Counted from the first letter of the whole stretch, positions 2,469-55,096 are shown. The stretch is DNA of 60,497 nucleotides, filler included, from Circinaria calcarea (GCA_051942165.1; 8 parts of 8 records of this genome joined end to end with filler, not necessarily neighbours in it); one strand, 5' to 3'. Program-made: numbers and translations. The notes: generated from the letters alone by a model not told the origin.

Positions 2469-3506
2469 CCATTTTGAGCTGGAAAGAGGTGAGAAATGAG
2501 TTTTCAGAGGGGCCTTACCGGGCGATTATTCTCCAGCGTTGAGAGATTTTCGAAAGGAATGTGGATGGCTTGAATAAGAAAGCCAGATACGATAACCGTA
2601 AACGCTCCGAAGCCTCACGTCCCGCTTGCTCAAAATAGCTAGTATAGGCTATGGGCGCACTTTCTGGTAGGATGCTCTATGTAAAAGGGAGACAACGCAC
2701 CAGAAAGGCGTAGACCACCATCCGCCACAACGCAATACAAAGTGGTGACCAATCACAGGTCGCCGGGATTAATAGATGCAGTGGGATTCGGGCGGGTACC
2801 ACAAGCGCCAATCCAGCTATCGTCCATAACCAGTTATGTAGCGCCGAAAAATGAATCAGACTGGACGCCGTATATGCTATGGAACAAAGATCCCAAAGAT
2901 ATGGGCAGAACGTGCAACCTTGCGGTGTATGCGAGCGGGTTTGCGGCACGGTCTTTCAATGCTATTGATTGGCTAGTTCTAAAAAGGCAACTAGAGGATC
3001 AAACCATTTGGCTTATGATCATCCATACTCCGCCATGCCGCTTCGAAATGCAAACTTAGAGTTCGGTATACATTGCCGATCCAAAGCACGTGGGATCCTT
3101 ATTCCAAGATATATCAAGTCCCAGCTCGGCAGTATGTAGGTAGGTACAGCCCGCCTTCGATGGTAGGAATATCTTAACTGCTTGTGCCGTTCTCTCACGT
3201 TATATTTCAGAGTCTCATCTTATTGGCGGAAACGGGACTTGATGTTCGGCTACGGCTTTTCGCTTCTCGGGCACAGTATCTTTCACTAGCTACTCCTTAT
3301 CCTTCCATGCGGATTCATGGTGTGTGGCCAGAAAGACTTCTATTCGAGCAGCACCTTCATTAACCGGCGTTGAAACACTCGTAGGCATTGTCTGCACACC
3401 TGCAAGAACCAGAAGCCTGTTATAAAGTCAACGTTATCATCTCTCTTTCGATATTTATCTTCTCTTGCTATTCTGCTCTATTTCAGTGCAACTTTGCTTT
3501 CTCAAT

Positions 3507-5006
3507 ATGAGTATCCCACCGCCACCCCCTAGTCTAGATCTCACCACAACACAGCAGCCGCGTATTCTTGCCGTGAACATTGCCACATACTCCCTAGCGT
3601 TTATAGCCGTTGTCCTCCGCTTTGTCTGTCGGAGATTATCAAAAGCCGCAATTTGGTGGGATGACTGGCTGATAATAGCAGCTTTGGTAAGGCTGAATAA
3701 AACAGTAATCATTTGATAATCAATTTTGACAAGGGAATACTTTAGCTTTTCTCGTCAATCTTGGTCTTTGTCTCAATCACGTGGAGTAAGTTCTATCTAT
3801 ATCACTTGAAGACCGGCCCTAATCACTATCAAAAGTGCTTATTCATGGATTTGGGAAACATGTATCGAGTAGCCAACCAGATGGGCTTCTAGTATGGGCA
3901 CAAGGTATTTTCATTTCCGAGTTTGCGTACACAGGCGTGATATGCTCCGTCAAATTTTCCCTTTTGGCTTTTTATTGGCGCATATTTAAGGTCACTACAA
4001 TTCGGATCCCCATCTACGTCATAGGTGCTGTCGTGACCTGCTGGGGAATTGCTGTTGTAAGATACCATCCTGATTAACTTGCTATATATAATAGGCTGAT
4101 TTTCACTTTTGCAGATTCTTGTTTCCATTTTCCAGTGCTTGCCTGTGAACGGATTTTGGGACAAAACCATCAACGCCACCTGTATCGACGCAGCCAAATT
4201 TTTCATTGCCAACTCCATTCCGAATATCGTCACCGATGCTGCTATTTTGATCTTGCCTATGCCGTATATCTGGCAGCTTCAGCTACCTAGGACGCCAAAG
4301 GTAGTGTTGTCCAGTATTTTCGTGTTGGGTATTTTGTGAGCCGGCTCCTGCTCCTCAATCTCAACTGTATTAATTGCCACTGTAGTGTAGTTGCCGTATC
4401 TATTACCCGTATTCAGTTTGTCGTTACTCTGGACTTGACCTCGCCCGATGTTACGTGGAGCTCTGTCGATAGCCAGATCTGGACTTGCGTCGAGACCAAC
4501 GTTGGCATCATCTGCGGTAAGTGATTTATGACATGGCGAGGCGTTTGCGCTGGGTGGCCATTGCTCAGCAATCAACCAAGGGCAATAAACCTGGCTCTTA
4601 TTCTAACAATCTACATCTTGCACCTACAGCTTGCCTGCCATCACTCCGGCCATTACTCTCACTCATTTTGACTGGCTCTGTGAACCCCAGCGGAGGTGCT
4701 TCCATGCAGATTAATAGAGGCGAATCGAGGAAACAAAAAGGCAGTGGTGTCTGGACCTGGTTCAGGCATAACGCCTCGGTTAGCAACCTTGGGGAGTTGC
4801 TCTCGGAAAGAGACGAACAGCAAGGAGTCTCCACAATCTCGATAGTGGAGCGTGGCGTGAACCATTCCCCGAGTCGGCAGAACCGAGACAGAAGAGCGAG
4901 AAACGCAAGTGTTGCTCTGAAGCCTATGGGAAACTTAGGAGGAACCAACACACGGAGCGACGTTGAGATTGAATACCACATCGAGAGCAGAGATGGGATT
5001 TTGTAA
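3507..5006 (+). CDS. PTH11-like (fungal rhodopsin-domain) integral membrane protein without a CFEM domain; multi-exon
   Basis: LRFVCRR...[76 protein letters not shown]. GT-AG introns include 3687-3745, 3787-3835, 4057-4114 and 4517-4629. Confidence 0.92.
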
Positions 5007-45473: not shown

Positions 45474-45655
45474 AGCTGGGAGCGCCACCCAGAGGGAGTA
45501 CCGTGCAGGAGAAAGATGCTTACGTCGCCGGTCTAAGGCAACTCATCCAAGACATGCGTATGAGAAAAGTCACTGACTTTAGCACCGTCGCCACTGAAAT
45601 TGCGGCATATCGCACCAAATACGTCGGAGATAAATCCAGCATATTGCCGTTATAG
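45474..45655 (+). CDS. 3' end of an unidentified protein
   Basis: Open frame from the contig edge, LGAPPRGSTVQEKDAYVAGLRQLIQDMRMRKVTDFSTVATEIAAYRTKYVGDKSSILPL*, followed by 3'UTR-like T-rich sequence. Confidence 0.6.
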
Positions 45656-46374
45656 GCATTGTAGTCCCTTTTTTCTGGATTCTCTTCCCTCTTTACATTT
45701 TTCATTTCGACGACTCGTAGATGCATACCCGATTGCATCAGCAGAGTACTTGGGCTGTAATGAAGCCAGCTACTTGCAACATACGCAAGATAATCAGAAC
45801 ATCATCCCGGCTGCCCGTGTAGCTTACTACTCTCTACCTTTTCTCCATATTTGTTCTACAAATCCTTTACTATGCATGTTCCAGCATAGCGTCCGGCGCA
45901 TCGAGCAGGTAGATACCCCCTCCCCGGTATAGCATTGCGGAGGCGACGGCATCTACTTTTTCCTGGTACAGGATAATTTGGGCCATGCTTAGGGGCTTCT
46001 GGACATAATAATGGGCTGGCTGAGATATCTGCTATAAGGGGCAGTGTACTTTATGATGGTAGATGGGGTGGTGGTTATTCTAGATCTATCTAGCTGCATA
46101 CTTGATAAAAAAGCCGATTCCATCCATCCATTGTTGATGCGTCTTGTTAGCTTAAGTAATGGGATTGTGTTGTAGAAATGTGATTGTTGATTATTCGGGT
46201 ACCTGGCTTTGCATGATGGCCTGAATGGTAGGTGAGCGCATTCGTTACTGGCCAACGTAGGGTTCTTTGACTTCGGATTCATCGGTGAGGTTCGAGGAAG
46301 TAGTCAGACCATCTATCTCACTATAATTACCTTAGGTAGGGCTTCTCCCTTTATCCCCACTGTCGCTAAGGTAG

Positions 46375-46873
46375 GTACCTTTGGAGATGCTGGAAGAGTG
46401 ACCTCAGGGGATTATCTCGATTAAAATAAGTTCGATGAATAATTCGTTGGAAATCTTGCGGCAGTCGTATCAAGAACATCCGCTCATCCTCCAATACTGC
46501 GCAGTAGCATGCCTACAGCCATCGAAGCATCCCACGAGCTTGGCTCGAGAGATATGGATACGAGTCACTTGACTGGTTTGACTGCTATGCTAAGTATTGC
46601 TGGCAGAGAGCCTTCTGTAAGTCTCCTTCTATGTCTCCGAGGCTGACCCAACGCTGCAGAAACCTCCTGAGATGGCGCGTTTACTTGATGCTCTTATCCA
46701 TAATGCGTTCATGCATTGCGGGTTATCGTCCCCAGTCGTACCTGCATTGACGGGAACTCCGGAAAAAGTAAGTAGGTACCTTACCACGAGTGATTTCTAT
46801 AGAGGACTTGCAGAGAGGAGGACCTGGAGAAAGAGGAGGACCCGGGGAAAGAGGAGGACCCGGGGAAAGATGA
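46375..46873 (+). pseudogene. Spliced gene relic with RIP-like TAA stops
   Basis: One frame GTFGDAGRVTSGDYLD*NKFDE*FVG...MPTAIE...REPS, a canonical 43-nt intron at 46617-46659 (GTAAGT..GCTGAC..CAG), an in-frame exon KPPEMARLL...TPEK, and a second GTAAGT donor at 46768. Confidence 0.45.
46814..46870 (+). repeat. 18-bp tandem repeat x3
   Basis: AGAGGAGGACCTGGAGAA / AGAGGAGGACCCGGGGAA / AGAGGAGGACCCGGGGAA. Confidence 0.95.
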
Positions 46874-47384
46874 TTGCCATCGGGGATGGCATATCAGGCG
46901 TGGGGCTTTAATCGCTGGGAAAGAGGTGGGCTCTAGGAATATAATAGATCTAAAGAGGTGTGCATTGTATATTGGGAGCGGATACGGAAGACAGTGTTAG
47001 AGAAGCTTCTGTGTTACTTCTGTTTATTTTTGGCGGTGCCAATTGAGTGCTAGATTCTGTGTGTATATAAAACTAAGTCTCTTTGGCTAAAATCGAGTGT
47101 CTGTAGCCAAGATGCGATGTGGGAATACGTGGAGATTGTGACTAAGACTTTGCGCAAGGTTCTCCGCATACTGAAATTTTCCCCAACCTCGACAGCAAGC
47201 ATTCAGATACAGAAGTGGGCCTTTTTTGCAAAGTATTATCTAACTTGCGAATGTATTTGAAAGCGGATTCCCCATATTTCTAGATAGAACTTCTATGCTA
47301 TATCATACAGAGAAAAGCGATCCTGCAATCGGGGATAAGTAACTTGCCGACCAGAGATGCGTAATCCCTCTTGTTTATCATGCG

Positions 47385-47449
47385 CAAAGCCCTTCTCTTA
47401 ACCTTACTCAAAGCCCTCCTCTTTACCTTTTTCAAAGCCCTTCTTTTGC
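47385..47449. repeat. 24-bp tandem repeat x2.7 just downstream of the 582-aa ORF
   Basis: CAAAGCCCTTCTCTTAACCTTACT / CAAAGCCCTCCTCTTTACCTTTTT / CAAAGCCCTTCTTTTGC. Confidence 0.9.
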
Positions 47450-47467
47450 AGTGTATATCCGTTTTCT

Positions 47468-49216
47468 TTATACTAGCTCGTCAGACATAAGCTCATCAAA
47501 ATTCTCATCGGGCGGGTTGTCCAAATCAATTGTGTCTTTGAGCTCTTCGGCCAATGCATCTAGCTCCTCGTTATCGGAAAACTCCATGATTATATCAAAA
47601 TCCTCGGATACGCTCAGAGGTTTCTCAGCTTCCCATTTCACGGCAATCGCTTCCAATTGCTTGAGCTTGGGATTTTCACGCATTGCCACCGGAGAATCAA
47701 GCTTCTCGGGCTCTTCCTGTTTGATGTTATGGATGAATTGAGCATAGGCTTCCTCCTCCATTTGTCTCATCAAGTCCTGATTTTCTTGTATACTTTTATA
47801 TGCGGCGACTATCACCTGACCCTCGAAAGTTGTTTGACTTTGTTTCTCGAATAACTTCTTCTCAGCGGCTCTGTGATTTCTGGCCTCCTCTCGGGCTTTA
47901 GCGATTTCTTCAATAAGTTTGCGATTCTCTGCCTCGATTTGAAGCCGTTGTTTCTCCAGCTTGGCAGTCGCTTCACGTAGCTGTGCTAGTCGAGTTGGAT
48001 CGAGGTAGCGAGCGATTGCATTCCTTCTCATCTGTCTCCGCCAATCAATCTCGAGTGCTTTTTGAAGATGATCTAGCTTAGTGAACACCTTGATCGCATT
48101 TTTTCCCAAAGATTCCTCCTGTCCGTTTAAGCTATACGCGGGTGCGCTCCCTGTAGCGGCACAATTCAAACCCCCATGTTCAATATAGGACGAGCAGAGG
48201 ACTGATCCGAGAATCTCGGAAATCTGAGGAAGAAAGTCTTTTTCCCATACCCTGAAGAGACAAAGCTGTGTGGGATTTGGAAACCTAACGCTCATCAAAC
48301 CTGGATTGATGCGAGTGTAGGCATTGAGCCAGCCGTAGACATACGAGGTGGAGCTGTTGGTGACATGTTGTTTGAATCGTGCCTTCAAATCCACTGCCCA
48401 CCCGACCTCGGTAGGGCATCTCAAATGAGGGATATCCCGCCTTGAAGGGGCTACATCCAAGTAGAACGTTTTGTCCACCCACTTTCCCCAAGATAGCAAA
48501 TCGTCCTTGGAGGCTGAGTTCTTTGCATAACTGCGAGTGTTGGGATCGTTGACAGCGCCAGCTTTAACGGACTCGGACGGTGGATTGAACACCCCGTCAA
48601 TACGTTGGGCGAGGTTCAGGTCTGGTGTGTTCTCATCGAGATATCTTTCCAACGCCTGCACCATGGCATGAACTTCAGAACCTGATAGCCATCTCCCAGG
48701 ATAAGGCAAACCCCCGCTATGAGCGAGTCCCGTGGCCTCTTTGCCTCTCGCAACAATGTTGATATACACCCCGGGATTCGAGTCGGGTGCCATCCATTTA
48801 TCGACGAAATTTCTGATAAAAGGACTTGCATCATAATCACTCGTAAGAGTGTTTTTGATCAGAGATTCGAGCACTATTATCGGGAGAGTAAGTAGCTGAA
48901 GATAGATGTAATATCTCTTTGATGAGAAGTCCTCAGCCACCAAGATCCATGATGATTTCTTGGAGCTTTTGTCCTTAAGCATTTCATTCGCATATCGATA
49001 GATTTCGGATGCCAGCCCCCAGTGACCTTCAGTCTGCAAAGCCATAAGCATGCGCTGTTGCTCGTTGGTCTGAACAGGAGTATCAGGATCTGGCTGGACC
49101 TTGGCTGCTTCCACGAAGTCTAGTGCAAGCGTTGGAGTTGGCTGCGTTGGGTATAGGAGGATAGCTGGACGGCTCAAGCTGCGAATAGCTTGGGATGCTC
49201 GCTGTTGGCTCGACAT
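47468..49216 (-). CDS. Intronless 582-aa protein: putative divergent GIY-YIG-like nuclease plus coiled coil and acidic tail
   Basis: The ORF itself is secure. Motif order G149-V-Y ... E270-V-G-W-A-V-D-L-K-A-R280-F-K-Q-H284 ... E334 ... G-G-L-N351 parallels GIY...YIG.T.NL..R..QH...E...N. The domain assignment is inferred by eye. Confidence 0.6.
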   Translation of the reverse strand: MSSQQRASQAIRSLSRPAILLYPTQPTPTLALDFVEAAKVQPDPDTPVQTNEQQRMLMALQTEGHWGLASEIYRYANEMLKDKSSKKSSWILVAEDFSSKRYYIYLQLLTLPIIVLESLIKNTLTSDYDASPFIRNFVDKWMAPDSNPGVYINIVARGKEATGLAHSGGLPYPGRWLSGSEVHAMVQALERYLDENTPDLNLAQRIDGVFNPPSESVKAGAVNDPNTRSYAKNSASKDDLLSWGKWVDKTFYLDVAPSRRDIPHLRCPTEVGWAVDLKARFKQHVTNSSTSYVYGWLNAYTRINPGLMSVRFPNPTQLCLFRVWEKDFLPQISEILGSVLCSSYIEHGGLNCAATGSAPAYSLNGQEESLGKNAIKVFTKLDHLQKALEIDWRRQMRRNAIARYLDPTRLAQLREATAKLEKQRLQIEAENRKLIEEIAKAREEARNHRAAEKKLFEKQSQTTFEGQVIVAAYKSIQENQDLMRQMEEEAYAQFIHNIKQEEPEKLDSPVAMRENPKLKQLEAIAVKWEAEKPLSVSEDFDIIMEFSDNEELDALAEELKDTIDLDNPPDENFDELMSDELV

Positions 49217-49535
49217 GATGCCTCTTTGTTTTGGATAAAGACAAGTAAAATTCTGCAGGAAAGACGGATCTAAGAGGAATGGTGGTCAAGGGCTCTTGAG
49301 CTTTGAGAAGGAGAGTCGTGATCTAAAGGTAGCAGAGAGGTCTCGACCATGGGGGCATAATAGACTCCGAGTGGCAAAATTAAGCGAGATGTATTATTTA
49401 CTGTGCGTAATATTGAGCTCATATTCACTATTGCTCTATACTGATTACCACCTCCAGGCAGATAAATTTCACGCCACGGTCTAAGCTCTGTATTGCTCGC
49501 CTACAGCCCACAAGTCGTTAATTCCACTTCACCAC

Positions 49536-49583
49536 CATCGTCACTTTACATCGTCACTTTACATCTTCACTTTACATCTTCAC
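49536..49583. repeat. 13-bp tandem repeat x3.7 in the divergent intergenic region
   Basis: CATCGTCACTTTA x2, CATCTTCACTTTA, CATCTTCAC. Confidence 0.95.
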
Positions 49584-49734
49584 AATCACAGCCATTGCAA
49601 CACGTTACGGTTTGGACTACAAGCTATTAAATTTATCAATCAATAACTCTTGGAGGACCTTGCCTGCTGCTACCAAGCCACAAGCCTTCGAGTTTTCAGC
49701 CAAGCTGTTTACCTTTTCAAACTCCGGAAACATC

Positions 49735-51291
49735 ATGTCCGACTCACGTCGTGGTGCTGCTTCTGGTCGTGGTCGTTCTTCTGGCGGTGCTGGAAGCTCT
49801 CGTCGTGGTCGAGATTCCTCTCGTCGTGGTGGCAATCCGTCCCGTGGAGGTGGCAATCCGCCTCGTGGAGGTAGAGATGCTCGTGGTGGTGAGCGTGCTT
49901 TTGGTGGTGGGAATGCTCGGGGCGGTGACCTTCACGCCAGATCTGGCGTTGAGGCTTCAACTTCTGCATACGCATCTCCTCCTTCTCCTCCTCCTCCTCC
50001 TGCTGCTGCTGCTGCTCCTCAAGCCCAAGCAGAGTTCCTAATACGCGGTCGTGCTCCCATTCCTGCTGCACCCGCACCACCTCAAGTGATCTTGGCACTG
50101 TCTGGGGACCAATTTCACGAACTTGCTCGGTTATTAAGTGGACAGGCAGCACAAGGAGTACCAGCGCCACCAGCAACGCCAGCAGCTCCGTTGCCTAGTG
50201 GTGAAAGAAGCTCAGTGCCTCGAGAAGAGCATCATGGTGAGAGCGGCTATGTTTCAAGTCGATCAAGTCGACAATCTTCTGCACGACAGCGTTCTCGGTC
50301 TCCTGAGACACGATCGCGATCTCGATCTCGTTCACGTTCTCGATACTCTGATCGAGGCCATCGAAATCGCTCTCCACGATATCGATCATCACGATATCGA
50401 TCACCATCATGGTCACCAGAACGACGAGGAGCTCGCCGTCGATCCCCTTCACCGCAGCGATCGCGAGGGGAATATATGATGCCACCTCCGTCGTTTATAC
50501 CTCATCGACCACTCCTTCCCAGCAATCGATGGCAAGCACCAGCCATAGAAGACGCAAGAAGGCCAGCACCACCCGCAGCCCCCGCAGCCTTCGGTAGACG
50601 TTCGGCCCAAGGGCAGGAGCACTGGGTTCAAGCCCAGCGGTTGCGAGAGACCGCGGAGAATATGGAGCGTTCTTTGGCGGAAGGACGAGCAGCTCTTGCT
50701 GCTGCAGAAGCTCGACACCGGGAATGGGGAGCTCGAGCTCCCACACTTCCGACACCTCCTCTAGTGATTGAGGGCCAGGCGTTGCCTGCATCCAGTCTGG
50801 TGGTAAGTCAGGTACCGTCTGACAGGATGGATGTCGATATCCCGGAACAATCAGCGGCATCCGGGCCATCCACCGCGTCGTCAAGTAACAGGGGTCCGTC
50901 AAGTCGTTTCTTAGCTCAGACACGCCTGAGCAATGCTATTCAGGCGACGAATGGGCACCGCCAACAATGGGAGCGGGTCTATGATTACCTATCACCCTCT
51001 CTACAACCCCTCGACCCAGCACTCATCGCTTTACAGGCAAGACTGGATAGGAAGGTCCTCATCGCCACGGCTTTAAATGCTGCGTTGGCCGAAGGATACA
51101 CAACTTTGCGGACTACTCCCGAAGATGGTGTGGCAGGTGTTATGCGAGGAATCGAAGCCCGCATGAATGGGTTGATGGAGCAACATCGAGCTTGGCGGGA
51201 GAATAGCAATGCATTGCTTACAAGGCACTTCAACGCGATTGGACATCTCGTCGAACCCGATCGCACTATCCAAAACCTTATGAGACGCTGA
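49735..51291 (+). CDS. Intronless 518-aa low-complexity protein (RGG boxes, RS/SR region, helical C-terminus), function unknown
   Basis: First ATG at 49735 in CATCATGTC context; RGGNPSRGGGNPPRGGRDARGG; RSRSRSRSRYS...RYRSSRYRSPSWSP; amphipathic C-terminal ~90 aa. Confidence 0.75.
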   Translation: MSDSRRGAASGRGRSSGGAGSSRRGRDSSRRGGNPSRGGGNPPRGGRDARGGERAFGGGNARGGDLHARSGVEASTSAYASPPSPPPPPAAAAAPQAQAEFLIRGRAPIPAAPAPPQVILALSGDQFHELARLLSGQAAQGVPAPPATPAAPLPSGERSSVPREEHHGESGYVSSRSSRQSSARQRSRSPETRSRSRSRSRSRYSDRGHRNRSPRYRSSRYRSPSWSPERRGARRRSPSPQRSRGEYMMPPPSFIPHRPLLPSNRWQAPAIEDARRPAPPAAPAAFGRRSAQGQEHWVQAQRLRETAENMERSLAEGRAALAAAEARHREWGARAPTLPTPPLVIEGQALPASSLVVSQVPSDRMDVDIPEQSAASGPSTASSSNRGPSSRFLAQTRLSNAIQATNGHRQQWERVYDYLSPSLQPLDPALIALQARLDRKVLIATALNAALAEGYTTLRTTPEDGVAGVMRGIEARMNGLMEQHRAWRENSNALLTRHFNAIGHLVEPDRTIQNLMRR

Positions 51292-51458
51292 TCGATATTT
51301 CGGCACCCTCGGAATTGGCAATAAGTATTCAAGGGAAATGATAGGAAGAGAAGGGCGAAAGAACTTGCGTTGGTCAAGAGAAGGGCATGATATCTTTGTT
51401 GAAACCGTACATGATCGATGCGACCAAGGTAATTTTAAAAAGAGCTTGGCTATGGAAC

Positions 51459-51602
51459 TCGGACTTTAAGGTAAGTAACTTTCAAAAAGAGGGCTAGCTA
51501 ACTACATAGTTTCAACCGGGATTACTAATATAACTATCGGACTTCAAGGTAGTAATTTTCAAAAGGAGGGCTTACTAACTACACAGGCTCAACCGGGGTT
51601 AC
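51459..51602 (+). repeat. Two ~66-bp direct repeats, each containing a 38-39 nt intron-like unit
   Basis: TCGGACTTTAAG|GTAAGT...GCTAACTACATAG|TTTCAACCGGG and TCGGACTTCAAG|GTAGTA...ACTAACTACACAG|GCTCAACCGGG. A partial third copy lies at 51425-51452. Confidence 0.85.
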
Positions 51603-52936
51603 ATCGGATGGACTGGATGACTGGACTCTGGCTGGGTAGGATAGTTCGGGATCAATTGCTGGCCGAATGCTTTCGATGAGATAACTAGGTGGAGGCTCTG
51701 GTTAAATCATCAATGCAAAAGGGATTTCTCAAACTAGCAATGCGCGTTGCTTCTGTGACTGTATGAGCAGTTTGACCACCATTTCCCCTCCCCACACCCG
51801 CTCAGATCCGATTTCCTCCCTATCTAGACCTGCTTGCTACTCGTAGTATTGATTTTCTACACTGTGTGTGTAACTCAAGGACGGTGGGACCGCTATATAT
51901 TGGATAGTACCATAATCCATTGAAAAAGAAATGGGGGAACGTGGACAAAAGGGCTCTAGAACCTCAGCGAGATGTTAATATCCAGGGGATGATTTTCCCG
52001 GCCACTATAAGACAGACAATGAATCTGTACTGCTATATACTAACGAGTAGGGTAAGCTTAAGTAGTGACCCAAGTTTTAATAAGAAATACTGGATTTTGC
52101 GGATTTCCGAAGCTGTATGCGCACCTGCGCATAGAGGTTCCCATCTCCCCAAAACTCACTCCTTTTCTTCCGAACTCTGAGACACTATTAGAAATGAATG
52201 TAAAGATAAGCTTACCGGCTTAGGAGCTGTCAAACCTACGAGATGGTTGGGATTGCCCTCCGATTACTCCTGTTCTGGGGTTTCTTTATGGTGTATACTA
52301 GGGTAAGACACCCTTCAAAGGCGGTGATTGGAGGACATAGAACTAAAGGAAAACTTAGTTGTTTCCATATTTGTTTGGGTTATCTCGCAAGGGACACAGC
52401 TCTGCAGATACTATGTGTAAGGCTGTATGGGAAGGCAGGCACGAACCAGTGGCGTTTTAGCTAGCCTTCGGGCTTAGATAGCAAATGACAGTTCTACATT
52501 ATACAATAACGTGACAAGTTAGCCAGGTATGGGGTATGCAGATCAAAGTATAAATGAAAGACGGGAGGGATGGACGCAGTGGGAATAGGAGCAGAGATTG
52601 AGAATGGAGTACGGAGAGGAGGAGGATGGAAGGTCATGCATGAAAGTTCTCAAGCGGGAAAAGGTATATAAACAACAAGAGATGAGAGCATTTATTGCTA
52701 GACGTAAGCTACGCTACTCGGTGTCTCTATGCTAACCTGGCAGCTGGGCCCAACTCTTTAAGATTCCAGCAAGTCAAGGTGAGCTCGCTAAATTGCAAAG
52801 AAATATCACCCTAGGTCCTCCTCATTTGTAGCCTTGAAAGCCATTCCAATTACCAAGTCATGGGACAAACGGTGCCGAGCCTATAATGCAGGTTAGTCAC
52901 CTGGGAGAGTTACTAACCTAGAGTCCCCCTTGCGAA

Positions 52937-53036
52937 NNNNNNNNNNNNNNNNNNNNNNNNNNNNNNNNNNNNNNNNNNNNTTAATTAATTAANNNNNNNN
53001 NNNNNNNNNNNNNNNNNNNNNNNNNNNNNNNNNNNN
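52937..53036. other. Artificial contig spacer
   Basis: N44-TTAATTAATTAA-N44. Confidence 0.99.
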
Positions 53037-55096
53037 AGGATGCTTTTCGTTTCATTTACAGCCATGCCGCTCACCCCCATCGCTCGTACTTGTGTTCCCC
53101 TTCTCAGCCGCTGCAATCCCACTGCGACCTTCCAACCTTCCTCTTCTTGCAGGACAAAGACGTACCGTTTCCCCTCCTGGTCTCGGATACTCGCTCGGAG
53201 GACATGAAGCCCCTTGTATTCACCGCTCTGTGAAGACCCACTGATGTTAGATCGACTCTTCACCGAAGAATGAGAAGCTCCAAAGCGACCAGAACAGCCA
53301 GACTTGCAACCTTGCAAGAATTTCTCAAGGAAAGCATCTGATTCTTCACTCGTCAAAACTTTCGATGAAGCCTTTGATCCAAAGAAAGTAGAACGACCAG
53401 TGCCCGTGGTAACATTACGAGATGCAGGGGCAGAGCCAGAAGTTGCTCCCAAATCTTGCAGCTGGGGACACCATACCTCTACCAATTTCATTGTCCATGC
53501 TTTGACGTCCCACTCCCGCTGGGGCACACCTCTTACATCGTCGTCGATGAAGAGACCTTCCGTGGTGATACGGAGAACGAGACCGTCGGTGACAGAACCG
53601 ACGCCGGATACAAGCTGAGCAACCGGAAGCTTTGTGAAGGTATTATTGAAGGAGTAAACCGCTTTGATGACAATTTTATCAGGATCTTTTGTGTGATAGG
53701 GACCGCGATTTGACGGTGGCGGCGTTGTGCGTGCCGTGGACTGTGATGGAGCATACGAAGACTCGGAATAAACCGAGGACGTGGACGTGGCCTTTTGTAC
53801 AGGTCGTTTAGGTTTATCGTAAGGGCGGAAGGAGTATGAAGATGCATCATCTGTGGCTGTCCTTGCCGTAGGCTGTCGATGGTCTTTGATTGGCGAAGAT
53901 GACCTTGAAGTGTCGGACTTCCTCGGGATGGTCTGTGTAACTGGATCCCGCAGCCTCTCCTTTGCTTCTTTCTCCTCCTTCTTGCTTCGCTCCTCGGCCT
54001 CTTTCTTGCGTCGCTCTTCAGCCTCCTTGGCGTCTTTGGCTTCCTTGGCCTCTCTAGCTTCTCTTGCTTCTTTGGCCTCCTTTGCTTCTCTTGCTTCTTT
54101 TTCTTCCTTCTCCCTCCGTTCCTTTGCCTCCTTTGCTTCCCTTTCTCTACGCTCCCTCGCCTCTTTTAATTCTCTTTCTCTCCGCTCCTTTATTTCTCTT
54201 TCTTTCCTCTCCTTTACCGCATTCTCTCTCCGCTCCCTGGCTTCACGTTCCCTTGCGTCTTTTTCTCTTTGCTTGGCCTTCTCCTTCTCCTCTTCCTCCC
54301 TTTTCTTCCTGAGCTCCTCCATCCTCCTCCGCAAGTCCTCTTTCTTTCTTGTCTCTTCTCTTGCCTTTTCCCAGTCATCCTTGTCCGCACTTGTACCAGT
54401 ACCATTACCGTTGGGGGGTGCTGTGTTTGCTTTCTGCCATGTTGGCTTGGGTGGAGGCTGTGTATTAAAATCCGGTGGAGGTTGTGTACCAAATTCTGGC
54501 TGAGGTTGAGACCCAAATCCTGGCGGAGGGTTTCCATTAAAGCCTGGTGGTGGTCGCGTATTGAAACCTGGCGAAGGATTTGCATTGAAACCTGGTGGGG
54601 GTTGCGCATTAAAGCCTGGCGGAGGTTGCGGGTTGAACCCTGGGGCAGGCCCAGTAGAGGCACCGGGCATTCCACCCGTTGTGCCCGATGCTGGCCCGCC
54701 TGTAGCACTTCCGTTGGCATACGTACCGGATGCACCTCCTGCACTCCCATTCGCCGGTTTATCAGTCTCCATCTGTGTTTTACCCCAAGCCCATCCAGCA
54801 ACTCCTACCCCAACCAGCAAGATCACCACTCCCATACCTCCGCTCGCTACGATTGTAGCAAACCATTCTCTCAGGACGGGAAAGATGACGGTCCAGATGG
54901 CCACAGCGAGGAGTGTACACGCAACCCCGGCGAGGAAGCTGTTCCGATGTGGTTGTAAAGAAGGCAGGTAAAGGAAACCTGAACCCGAGGAGTGTGGCGG
55001 TATGATGAATATGTCGTAGTTGCCGGGTGGAAGGCCTGAGGAAGGTTTATGGCCGCTGCTCGTGCCATGAGGTGGAGGGGGAGGAGGGGGATCCAT
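53037..55096 (-). CDS. Fungal membrane protein of unknown function (2 TM helices, PGFN repeats, E/K/R-rich helix, globular C-terminus); 3' end cut
   Basis: Long ORF: GNYDIFIIPPHSSGSGFLYLPSL, two hydrophobic segments, charged helix, and C-terminal DGLVLRITTEGLFIDDDVRGVPQREWDVKAW. Confidence 0.85.

Follow-up and report, generated by a model that had tools for sequence, protein, structure and literature searches.

A divergent gene pair of Circinaria calcarea encoding a predicted split GIY-YIG nuclease and a basic RGG/RS protein: a possible lineage-restricted two-gene unit

Two-ORF DNA transposons such as the PIF/Harbinger and hAT-like elements carry short inverted ends and subterminal repeats. 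According to PMC1564403, GIY-YIG nuclease domains typify homing endonucleases and Penelope elements. The eukaryotic GIY-YIG nuclease SLX1, according to PMC9071465, depends on its non-enzymatic partner SLX4. Here we analyse a divergent gene pair of the lichen-forming ascomycete Circinaria calcarea, which we read, with confidence slightly better than even, as a lineage-restricted two-gene unit comprising a nuclease and its dedicated partner, co-duplicated.

The divergent pair and its repeats

The window, meaning the whole 60.5-kb stretch of DNA that was analysed, comprises eight pieces of 7461-7491 bp each, connected by the joiner N44-TTAATTAATTAA-N44. The seventh piece (45474-52936, 7463 bp; "contig 7" in the initial annotation) carries both genes, arranged as follows.

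47468..49216, minus strand: ORF A (P0001), 582 aa, with an N-terminal helical domain, a split GIY-YIG core, a long helical stalk and an acidic tail
49735..51291, plus strand: ORF B (P0002), 518 aa, with RGG repeats (1-75), a Pro/Ala-rich stretch, RS repeats (161-250) and a conserved C-terminal region (361-518)
49217..49734, no strand: divergent intergenic region of 518 bp, presumed shared promoter, holding a 13-bp tandem repeat at 49536-49583

As the initial annotation had it, the two ORFs are intact and head-to-head, with their ATGs 518 bp apart, and the spacer contains 3.7 copies of a 13-bp unit, CATCGTCACTTTA. We predict that this spacer acts as a shared promoter from which both genes would be divergently transcribed and co-regulated. 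The common start context reported earlier is also present, both ORFs beginning with CATCATGTC, though it is only weakly unusual: the 9-mer occurs three times in the window, a count reached in 3 of 100 shuffles, and it matches what we take to be the usual fungal start context. The seventh piece holds no long ORF besides ORF A and ORF B, and the longest stop-to-stop frame in the flanks is 122 aa. Long uninterrupted ORFs are not rare in the window, since 15 ATG-ORFs of at least 250 aa are present. The description of the surrounding DNA as degenerate did not hold in the sense of RIP; the dinucleotide ratios of the flanks (TpA/ApT of 0.88 and 1.07; (CpA+TpG)/(ApC+GpT) of 1.30 and 1.11) carry no RIP signature, and the flanks simply lack long ORFs.

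Related repeats had been noted just past both stop codons, and we recovered them as copies of an 11-mer, AAGAGAAGGGC, downstream of both genes.

47385..47447, minus strand: three AAGAGAAGGGC-type copies in the ORF A 3' region (47389-47399, 47413-47423 and 47437-47447), within a 24-bp tandem repeat
51346..51386, plus strand: two exact AAGAGAAGGGC copies in the ORF B 3' region (51346-51356 and 51376-51386), from a motif search

With at most one mismatch, AAGAGAAGGGC matches six times in 60.5 kb, and five of the six fall 21-95 nt beyond the stop codons of ORF A and ORF B, each reading in the same sense as the mRNA of the adjacent gene. Shuffled sequence gave a mean of 1.5 matches and reached six in 0 of 100 cases, and random pairs of 100-nt segments held an exact common 11-mer in 0.33% of 20000 trials, overlapping pairs included. 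The ORF A-side and ORF B-side arrays are mutually inverted, and the flanks of the two genes do not align past this short motif. Purine runs resembling AAGAGAAGGGC also occur at 46831, 46849, 46921 and 51561. The 24-bp unit is repeated 2.5 times at 47385-47444, and a 77-bp unit 1.9 times at 51459-51602.

Modelled fold of ORF A and composition of ORF B

ORF A is a member of a fungal family that has no name and that, in a library with one representative per 50%-identity cluster, counts 192 proteins at E<=1e-3 and 48 at E<=1e-30. By hmmscan, ORF A had no Pfam match at E<=1, and 60 relatives had none to Pfam nuclease families at E<=0.1, including the GIY-YIG models PF01541 and PF10544 (0/60). AF2 modelling gave a pLDDT of 83 for the full-length protein, and a pLDDT of 91.5 and pTM of 0.92 for residues 36-366. 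The predicted parts are the following.

48155..48778, minus strand: putative GIY-YIG nuclease core including an insertion, residues 147-354, from VIA-align to 1ln0_A and conservation in 60 relatives
48413..48754, minus strand: helical insertion of about 115 residues (155-268), set in the model secondary structure between the strands that bear GIY and EVG, the latter being the YIG equivalent
47717..48118, minus strand: long helices of a coiled-coil-like stalk, residues 367-500, with helices 382-404, 407-460 and 464-499 in the model
47471..47701, minus strand: acidic tail at the C-terminus (residues 506-582), with a net charge of -18

Among 48161 PDB chains, the closest to the domain model was 1ln0_A, the catalytic domain of I-TevI, with an rmsd of 1.9 Å over 88/92 residues and a Z of 6.6, which is under the level counted safe by the fold-search tool. 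The match covers residues 112..319 of the domain model, equivalent to ORF A residues 147..354, and the full-length model also retrieved I-TevI (Z 6.4, rmsd 1.9 Å, 88/92 residues). A Z of at least 2 was reached by 7 of the 48161 chains. I-TevI (6.6), the UvrC N-domain (3.3) and R.Eco29kI (3.0) are GIY-YIG by title, and T4 EndoII, at Z 4.0 against the domain model, is annotated as such; two further chains, PD-T4-3 (4.0) and the N-domain of a plant Grx (3.1), probably share the fold. Foldseek with the ORF A models returned no match at E<=0.001. A weak hhalign alignment (E 0.18, probability 0.3) places ORF A residues 269-287 onto I-TevI residues 16-34, pairing E270 with Y17, G272 with G19, R280 with R27 and H284 with H31.

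On strand 1 the GIY motif reads PG[IV]Y, and its tyrosine, Y151, is kept in 60/60 relatives. Strand 2 (269-274) follows strand 1 (149-154) by about 115 residues, as against about 10 in standard GIY-YIG domains, and the ORF A models place helices 179-193, 200-207 and 234-253 in this interval. On strand 2, the YIG-motif tyrosine is absent; E270 occupies its position, with glutamate in 55/60 relatives and tyrosine in 1/60, and the glycine of the motif is retained (G272, 58/60). Residues R280 (58/60) and H284 (55/60) lie on the first helix, and E334 (56/60) and N351 (59/60) sit in the helix and loop spanned by the structural match; judged from their order and spacing (17 residues versus 15), these last two would correspond to E75 and N90 of I-TevI. 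The model, together with the conserved residues and the weak hhalign alignment, bears out the fold of the divergent GIY-YIG-like nuclease proposed in the initial annotation, a catalytic core of beta-beta-alpha-(alpha)-beta-alpha type, with most of the catalytic residues (Tyr151, Arg280, His284, Glu334 and Asn351) in place in the modelled core. The family departs from the textbook GIY-YIG domain in its insertion of about 115 residues and in having EVG for YIG. By its modelled fold, ORF A may be a DNA, possibly RNA/DNA, nuclease, and the stalk, which matches only coiled-coil proteins, would probably support oligomerisation. The MSSQ start of ORF A is common to P0003, P0156 and P0005.

ORF B is basic and RGG/RS-rich, as first described, with a pI of 11.6 and a net charge of +34. 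Its strong codon-position asymmetry in GC (0.68/0.65/0.37 at positions 1/2/3) and a conserved relative indicate that it is coding. That relative, P0004 (Q9187_004051), is the one detected; it is 59% identical to ORF B over 497 columns and 75% identical over residues 360-518. ORF B is fast-evolving, strongly basic and largely disordered, with a conserved C-terminal region. Its exact sequence is absent from the protein collection, where relative searches returned no match to ORF B itself, and so the source annotation may omit the gene or call it differently.

Recurrence of the pair, partnership and mobility

The locus tag of P0004 is consecutive with that of P0156 (Q9187_004052), a protein 83% identical to ORF A; both tags belong to a Circinaria calcarea MAG, and each is listed for a 10893-bp contig. 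Adjacency in this second copy was judged from the locus tags and the equal contig size, at the level of annotation rather than DNA. The initial annotation had named homologues that are never linked as a finding that would count against its proposal. Instead, the sole detectable relative of ORF B is annotated beside a relative of ORF A, which indicates that the pair recurs as a unit; its two genes were probably duplicated together, as one block. Additional partial copies, 98% and 88% identical, lie on other short contigs. Between the two copies, the central 235 residues of ORF A are 97% identical and the ends 73-78%. P0156 has glycine at the position of N351, and thus one ORF A copy may be inactive.

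Another account, which we consider unlikely but worth weighing, is that a host nuclease (ORF A) and an SR-like nuclear RNA-binding protein (ORF B) are adjacent by chance and occur twice through segmental duplication or as haplotypes, the motifs being local low-complexity DNA. It would fit the weakly unusual start context, the purine-rich motif variants dispersed across the piece, and the contrast between the centre and the ends of ORF A, as expected of gene conversion between ordinary paralogues. At a distant family locus (L001, the one read), the divergent neighbour is a coiled-coil protein unrelated to ORF B; this, too, fits chance adjacency and implies that the A-B partnership is not family-wide. 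Chance neighbours fit less well with the recurrence of the sole detectable ORF B relative next to an ORF A paralogue, with the retention of two intact ORFs in each copy although ORF B has diverged by 41%, and with an exact 11-mer in mRNA sense less than 100 nt from both stops.

We favour the nuclease-partner reading, in which ORF B would be a dedicated non-enzymatic partner of ORF A, acting as a regulator, inhibitor or targeting factor. It builds on what is established here, namely the fold and residue conservation of ORF A, the second occurrence of the pair and the common AAGAGAAGGGC motif. The opposite charges of the ORF A tail (-18) and ORF B (+34) argue for it, as does the precedent of SLX1-SLX4 for a partner-dependent GIY-YIG nuclease; the absent second catalytic tyrosine, the modest Z of the I-TevI match, the weak hhalign alignment, the null Foldseek result, the lack of HMM matches, the unrelated neighbour at L001 and the glycine of P0156 weaken it. 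The same charges would suit a toxin-antidote system of a meiotic-drive or incompatibility-like kind, with ORF A as a nuclease poison, ORF B as its neutraliser and selection against their separation. The tight linkage, divergent here and kept after duplication, the much faster evolution of ORF B than of ORF A (59% versus 83% identity) and the lineage-restricted distribution are all compatible with such a system. However, P0156 lacks the conserved asparagine and its partner has been retained all the same, and the literature library that was searched contains no paper connecting GIY-YIG with spore killers; we regard a toxin-antidote pair as very unlikely.

Alternatively, some 4.0 kb of DNA (47376-51392) could form a selfish element that is autonomous, cut and copied or moved by its own GIY-YIG nuclease with the help of ORF B, and bounded by short inverted termini, subterminal AAGAGAAGGGC and a target-site duplication. 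A single candidate for such ends, with 8-bp inverted ends and a 7/8-bp direct repeat, was picked post hoc in the DNA of one copy.

47369..47383, no strand: candidate left end, TCTTGTT at 47369-47375 followed by TATCATGC at 47376-47383, a post hoc lead
51385..51400, no strand: candidate right end, GCATGATA at 51385-51392 followed by TCTTTGTT at 51393-51400, a post hoc lead

GCATGATA is an inverted copy of TATCATGC, and the two lie immediately outside the outermost motif copies. Just beyond them, TCTTTGTT repeats TCTTGTT directly with one extra T, a kind of match seen for 0.1% of point pairs fixed at random; it is T-rich and imperfect. A scripted check whether the inversion extends by a 7-mer was negative, as it reaches only 6 nt past the motif, plus a common C. 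The mutually inverted arrays would suit an element, but purine runs like the motif also fall outside the proposed ends, and motifs in mRNA sense are equally compatible with a 3'-UTR element. The presence of at least two diverged copies of the pair, together with the partial copies on short contigs, is in keeping with mobility, yet there may be only two loci with two near-identical versions each, which fits MAG haplotypes or strains. Also in favour of an element are the patchy occurrence and deep paralogue lineages of the ORF A family (members in two Xylographa species are only 27-29% identical), a truncated, rearranged copy in one distant member, and the presence of GIY-YIG domains in homing endonucleases and Penelope elements, noted above.

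Against this, the eight pieces hold no additional or dispersed copy of the unit, RIP is absent, and profile searches matched neither ORF A, ORF B nor the 60 ORF A relatives to transposase, reverse transcriptase or recombinase families, in agreement with the earlier observation that none is visible. Neither protein of the seventh piece matches any family of Pfam, PHROGs or PADLOC, recognised transposases included. A Starship captain tyrosine recombinase (DUF3435) is likewise absent within the 7463-bp piece, to which this search extends. The initial proposal of a mobile element, Starship cargo or toxin/antidote pair is, with no transposase family, RIP or further copy in the window, unsupported, and an autonomous selfish element seems to us improbable. 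Equally speculative is its most specific form, in which 47376-51392 (4.0 kb) would be a new kind of autonomous eukaryotic DNA element, with a split-motif GIY-YIG mobility enzyme, an RGG/RS helper, 8-bp inverted ends, subterminal AAGAGAAGGGC and a 7-8 bp target duplication, and the 192-cluster family its nuclease class. Were it true, that fungal family would supply the nuclease for a class of ascomycete selfish elements that has so far gone unrecognised.

Relation to known systems

The ORF A catalytic domain resembles in fold that of the GIY-YIG homing endonuclease I-TevI of phage T4 (1ln0), and equivalents of Y6, R27 and H31 are conserved in the family, as are residues that, judged from order and spacing, would correspond to E75 and N90. 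Unlike I-TevI, ORF A has its GIY and YIG strands separated by the insertion of about 115 residues, carries glutamate in place of Y17, and has a helical N-domain, helical stalk and acidic tail instead of a linker and zinc-finger/HTH DNA-binding domain. Its gene is nuclear, lies outside any intron and lacks a Pfam GIY-YIG match.

Two-ORF transposons of the PIF/Harbinger and hAT-like type would have in common with this locus two genes set between candidate short inverted ends, with repeats just inside these and perhaps a flanking duplication of 7-8 bp; the pair differs in having no DDE transposase or Myb-like partner, and its candidate ends are very short and post hoc. Starship elements have the host group, Pezizomycotina, in common with the pair, but neither a tyrosine-recombinase captain nor any other Pfam family is found on the 7.46-kb piece, which is too short to judge a larger element. 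T5orf172 (PF10544)/Mug113-type proteins were suggested by an ESM Atlas feature search, with a T5orf172-bearing cluster at 0.76 and a GIY-YIG cluster at 0.75, both under the evidence level of the tool; hmmscan finds neither PF10544 nor PF01541 in ORF A (E<=1) or its 60 relatives (E<=0.1).

SLX1-SLX4 is alike in joining a nuclear GIY-YIG nuclease to a non-enzymatic partner, which in SLX4 is largely disordered, and ORF A and ORF B may share such a relationship. SLX1 and SLX4 are, to our knowledge, repair genes found universally in single copy, whereas the ORF A/ORF B pair is lineage-restricted and duplicated. ORF A has no sequence relation to Slx1 that we could see, and no RING finger. The C-terminal asparagine, missing from Slx1 in a table of PMC1564403, is kept in 59/60 members of the ORF A family.

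Layout of the gene pair and its surroundings

The seventh piece of the window (45474-52936) carries two intact ORFs arranged head-to-head with 518 bp between them, so the arrangement that the initial annotation had pointed out is real:

47468-49216, minus strand: ORF A, intact, 582 aa
49735-51291, plus strand: ORF B, intact, 518 aa
49536-49583: tandem repeat of CATCGTCACTTTA, 3.7 copies, in the spacer between the ORFs

The 9-mer CATCATGTC stands at both starts and is similar to the usual fungal start context. It occurs three times in the window, a count also given by 3 of 100 shuffles, and a common origin of the two genes argued from this shared start was rejected as weak on that ground.

The flanks (45474-47467 and 51292-52936) contain no stop-to-stop frame longer than 122 aa and have no repeats in common with the other seven pieces, and Rfam and tRNA scans of the seventh piece found nothing. 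No RIP signature was present in the flanks, which led us to reject RIP as the cause of their poverty in genes; the surrounding DNA had been called degenerate, which is therefore the wrong word for flanks that are simply gene-poor. A 59-aa open frame (45476-45652, LGAPPRGSTVQEKDAY...) enters from the left edge of the piece, possibly the last part of a gene truncated by the contig border. The eight pieces of the 60497-base window, of 7461-7491 bp each, are linked by N44-TTAATTAATTAA-N44 spacers, and a 703-aa ORF (52985-55096) crosses the spacer between pieces 7 and 8; its last residues, a run of X, are therefore a joining artefact, the real gene lying on piece 8 and encoding a proline-rich and KE-repeat-rich product.

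A predicted GIY-YIG domain in ORF A

Searches of ORF A against Pfam, PHROGs, PADLOC and PDB sequences gave coiled-coil noise or nothing. Against 1.84 billion cluster representatives, an exhaustive phmmer run returned 192 matches at E<=1e-3, of which 126 remained at E<=1e-10 and 48 at E<=1e-30; most of the 192 are 450-650 aa in length and 25-36% identical. Among the 20 matches looked up, the named ones were hypothetical proteins of Lecanoromycetes, with the Circinaria calcarea MAG, Toensbergia leucococca, Xylographa bjoerkii, X. soralifera and Trapelia coarctata as hosts. The X. bjoerkii and X. soralifera members are only 27-29% identical, and we therefore read the family as a set of deep paralogue lineages, patchily retained. 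The ESM Atlas neighbours of ORF A were unnamed Ascomycota clusters (score 0.95), with GIY-YIG and T5orf172 clusters as weak leads (0.75-0.76), and no nuclease Pfam was found at E<=0.1 among 60 aligned relatives. The family alignment follows the pattern PGIYxN ... GxWLS ... RCPxEVGW ... R...H..N..TT ... LFPxW ... E[IL]xGS ... GGLN.

AlphaFold2 with this alignment modelled full-length ORF A at pLDDT 83 and pTM 0.73, and residues 36-366 at pLDDT 91.5 and pTM 0.92. The model comprises the following elements, in residues of ORF A:

51-141: helical N-domain, before the core
149-154: core strand GVYINI
between the first two core strands: insertion of ~115 residues with helices
269-274: core strand TEVGWA
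277-285 and 292-302: core helices
316-322: core strand
329-340: core helix
382-499: long helices, after the core

Foldseek found nothing at E<=0.001 against the PDB (full and domain models) or BFVD, a phage GIY-YIG protein appearing at rank 29 (E 3.1). An aligner independent of Foldseek gave Z>=2 to the domain model for 7 of 48161 PDB chains, headed by the I-TevI catalytic domain with a Z of 6.6 and an rmsd of 1.9 Å over 88/92 residues (protein residues 147-354). The PD-T4-3 restriction endonuclease (Z 4.0), T4 endonuclease II (4.0) and the UvrC GIY-YIG domain (3.3) hold ranks 2-4, followed by a plant glutaredoxin N-domain (3.1), R.Eco29kI (3.0) and an unrelated axonemal chain (2.5) at ranks 5-7. 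Titles or annotations identify four of these chains as GIY-YIG; we suspect that PD-T4-3 is as well, and we take the plant glutaredoxin domain to be GIY-YIG-like. The I-TevI match was also obtained with the full-length model (Z 6.4). Although a Z of 6.6 lies below the aligner's comfort level, the assignment of the predicted structure to the GIY-YIG fold is fairly safe because coverage is near-full at 1.9 Å and the list is clean.

The I-TevI sequence, taken from the T4 record, was set against the ORF A family profile. A weak hhalign match (E 0.18) placed ORF A 269-TEVGWAVDLKARFKQHVTN-287 on I-TevI 16-VYVGSAKDFEKRWKRHFKD-34, pairing E270 with Y17, G272 with G19, R280 with R27 and H284 with H31. 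In the 60 relatives, conservation is complete at Y151 (60/60) and high at N351 (59/60), G272 and R280 (58/60 each), E334 (56/60), and E270 and H284 (55/60 each), with N287 at 46/60. From order and spacing, we infer that E334...N351 (GGLN) is equivalent to E75...N90 (NGYN) of I-TevI. Compared with I-TevI, the family retains the GIY tyrosine and the Arg/His helix and probably also the metal-binding Glu and the C-terminal Asn, whereas a conserved Glu takes the place of the YIG tyrosine and the hairpin is split by a subdomain. Judged from the alignment, such a residue pattern speaks for an enzyme that is active and under selection and not for a dead fold.

ORF B and a second copy of the pair

ORF B divides into the following regions, by residue:

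1-75: RGG/RG repeats
80-160: Pro/Ala-rich
161-250: RS/SR repeats
361-518: non-repetitive

With the I-TevI match of the ORF A model and the RGG/RS repeats of ORF B, the initial reading of the two products as a GIY-YIG-like nuclease and an RGG/RS protein proves right. ORF B has a pI of 11.6 and a net charge of +34, the tail of ORF A one of -18. The GC content of ORF B at codon positions 1/2/3 (0.68/0.65/0.37) is a strong coding signature. Pfam gave nothing for ORF B, and its residues 285-518 had no usable match in the ESM Atlas. The protein collection lacked the exact ORF B sequence, which may therefore have a different gene model in the source annotation, or none. When 5.8 billion proteins were searched by word index with residues 290-518 and with 360-518, each query returned one match, and this one relative within reach of such a search was P0004 (Q9187_004051). 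It is annotated as hypothetical in the C. calcarea MAG, is 635 aa long and has 59% identity to ORF B over 497 columns and 75% across the last 159 residues.

The same MAG holds P0156 (Q9187_004052), a 579-aa relative with 83% identity to ORF A. Since P0156 and P0004 have adjacent locus tags and are both listed on a contig of 10893 bp, the pair recurs as neighbours in a diverged copy. The initial annotation had named homologs that are never linked as one of the findings that would speak against it, and in this second copy, with Q9187_004051 and Q9187_004052 consecutive, the linkage is retained. The same copy would be seen if two unrelated neighbours had been duplicated together, a reading that we hold to be unlikely but worth keeping in mind. 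A complex prediction of full-length ORF A with ORF B 285-518, in which the partner's fold was uncertain and alignments were unused, gave no verdict, with a score of 0.01 against a mark of 0.34.

Two shorter proteins of the MAG extend the set. Q9187_007418, a partial protein of 168 aa, comes from a 4331-bp contig and matches ORF A at 164/168 residues; Q9187_008368, with 167 aa, comes from a 2896-bp contig and matches P0156 at 147/167. There are thus two types with two close versions each. Two loci in two haplotypes, strains or assemblies fit this as well as four insertions do. ORF A and P0156 are unevenly similar along their length: identity is 78% for residues 1-115 and 73% for 351-582, but 97% for 116-350. 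P0003, a further relative encoded on a 9697-bp ENA contig, shares 85% identity with each of them in this central block. The mosaic suggests gene conversion between paralogues, or else very strong constraint. At the position of the near-invariant Asn351, P0156 carries Gly, and it is missing five residues near position 62.

In metagenome contigs, a query with ORF A gave 100 stretches that fit a pattern and 0 relatives, and P0162, a distant family member 31% identical to ORF A, gave five loci. The first, L001, encodes a distant member as a full-length, single intact ORF of 590 aa (2822-4594), which lies head-to-head, 502 bp apart, with a coiled-coil ORF of >773 aa and is followed by a coiled-coil ORF of 509 aa; the divergent neighbour is unrelated to ORF B. 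At two further loci, L003 (4275-4973) and L004 (7319-8020), homology begins inside the gene, at L001:3889, and the upstream DNA is different; by sequence this version is a truncated, rearranged copy, and its 234-aa products are listed on many contigs. With one distant locus as the sample, the nuclease family appears to recur beside fast-evolving helical or charged proteins, and the partnership with ORF B appears confined to a Circinaria-type subfamily.

The shared 3' motif and candidate boundaries

The motif AAGAGAAGGGC has six matches in the window with <=1 mismatch. Three lie 21-79 nt past the ORF A stop, within a 24-bp tandem repeat, and two exact copies lie 55-95 nt past the ORF B stop, which bears out the report of related repeats just past both stops. 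Every one of these copies reads in the direction of its own mRNA, which leaves the two arrays in inverted orientation. Shuffles gave a mean of 1.5 matches and none of 100 reached six, an observed count that tandem duplication inflates; an exact 11-mer was common to two random 100-nt stretches of the window in 0.33% of 20000 pairs, overlapping ones included. Beyond this short motif, neither the two 3' regions nor the two 5' regions aligned, and the motif was absent from all six further loci searched (five P0162-relative loci and a T4 stretch). With <=2 mismatches it has 40 matches in the window, 10 of them on the seventh piece.

Just outside the outermost motif copies, two inverted copies are bordered by direct copies that differ by one extra T:

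47369-47375: TCTTGTT, outside the left candidate end
47376-47383: TATCATGC, left candidate end
51385-51392: GCATGATA, right candidate end
51393-51400: TCTTTGTT, outside the right candidate end

Among random fixed point pairs, 0.10% show a direct match as good as this one, and for an inverted 7-mer extension lying 0-8 nt from two anchors the random expectation is 0.44%; both figures overstate the case, as the candidate ends were spotted by eye after the motif. A scripted test for the observed 7-mer extension came out False: there are only 6 nt beyond the motif, and the seventh (C) belongs to the motif as well. Purine runs resembling the motif also occur outside the candidate ends, at 46831, 46849, 46921 and 51561. 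The boundaries at 47376 and 51392 are a lead to the ends of a putative element. An autonomous selfish DNA element, bounded in this way, is in our estimate improbable. For a toxin-antidote pair, which would likewise consist of two linked genes, we see very little likelihood. Mobility or drive of the pair is a testable possibility and not a result.

Other repeats lie near these boundaries. A 77-bp tandem repeat (51459-51602; 1.9 copies, 85% identical), found here only within the window, has a unit resembling a ~40-nt spliceosomal intron (AAG|GTAAGT or GTAGTA ... CTAAC ... TAG/CAG) plus a 38-nt 'exon', and also holds a AAAGAGGGCT motif similar to the shared 3' motif. To the left of ORF A, an 18-bp tandem repeat of AGAGGAGGACCCGGGGAA (3.2 copies, plus strand, 46802-46870) and a related single copy (46917-46939) are purine-rich relatives of the shared motif, outside the proposed unit.

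We lean, somewhat beyond an even judgement, towards a lineage-restricted, co-duplicated pair of nuclease and partner. In such a pair, ORF A would be a structurally new variant of a GIY-YIG nuclease, probably active and probably oligomeric, and ORF B its dedicated, basic, disordered partner, the two genes being divergently transcribed with a common 3' motif.

The ORF A family, with 192 representative clusters and no Pfam model, would add a further eukaryotic nuclear GIY-YIG lineage, and its active site, with a split GIY...EVG motif and a large inserted subdomain, would be structurally a new variant. The close pairing with an orphan RGG/RS protein has persisted through duplication and offers a concrete, testable nuclease and partner system in lichen fungi, a group in which, to our knowledge, hardly any genes have a known function. 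Should the candidate ends be real, the pair would represent a mobile or selfish element of a new class; otherwise, the assignment still helps to annotate hundreds of 'hypothetical proteins'.

Literature searches on GIY-YIG with Starship, Pezizomycotina, spore killer and nuclear genome/coiled-coil, in which subscription journals were mostly uncovered, gave no description of the family. Those on T5orf172 in fungi gave nothing describing it either, only mitochondrial homing endonucleases and unrelated work appearing across the searches, and those on the Circinaria calcarea genome gave nothing relevant. Passages of a 2006 survey name a few eukaryotic nuclear GIY-YIG families, namely Slx1, an ankyrin/LEM group, Penelope elements and a MutS fusion, and contain no fungal nuclear family with a split motif (PMC1564403). 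The ORF A family is not Slx1; in architecture, the nearest analogue of the pair is SLX1 with its non-enzymatic partner SLX4 (PMC9071465).
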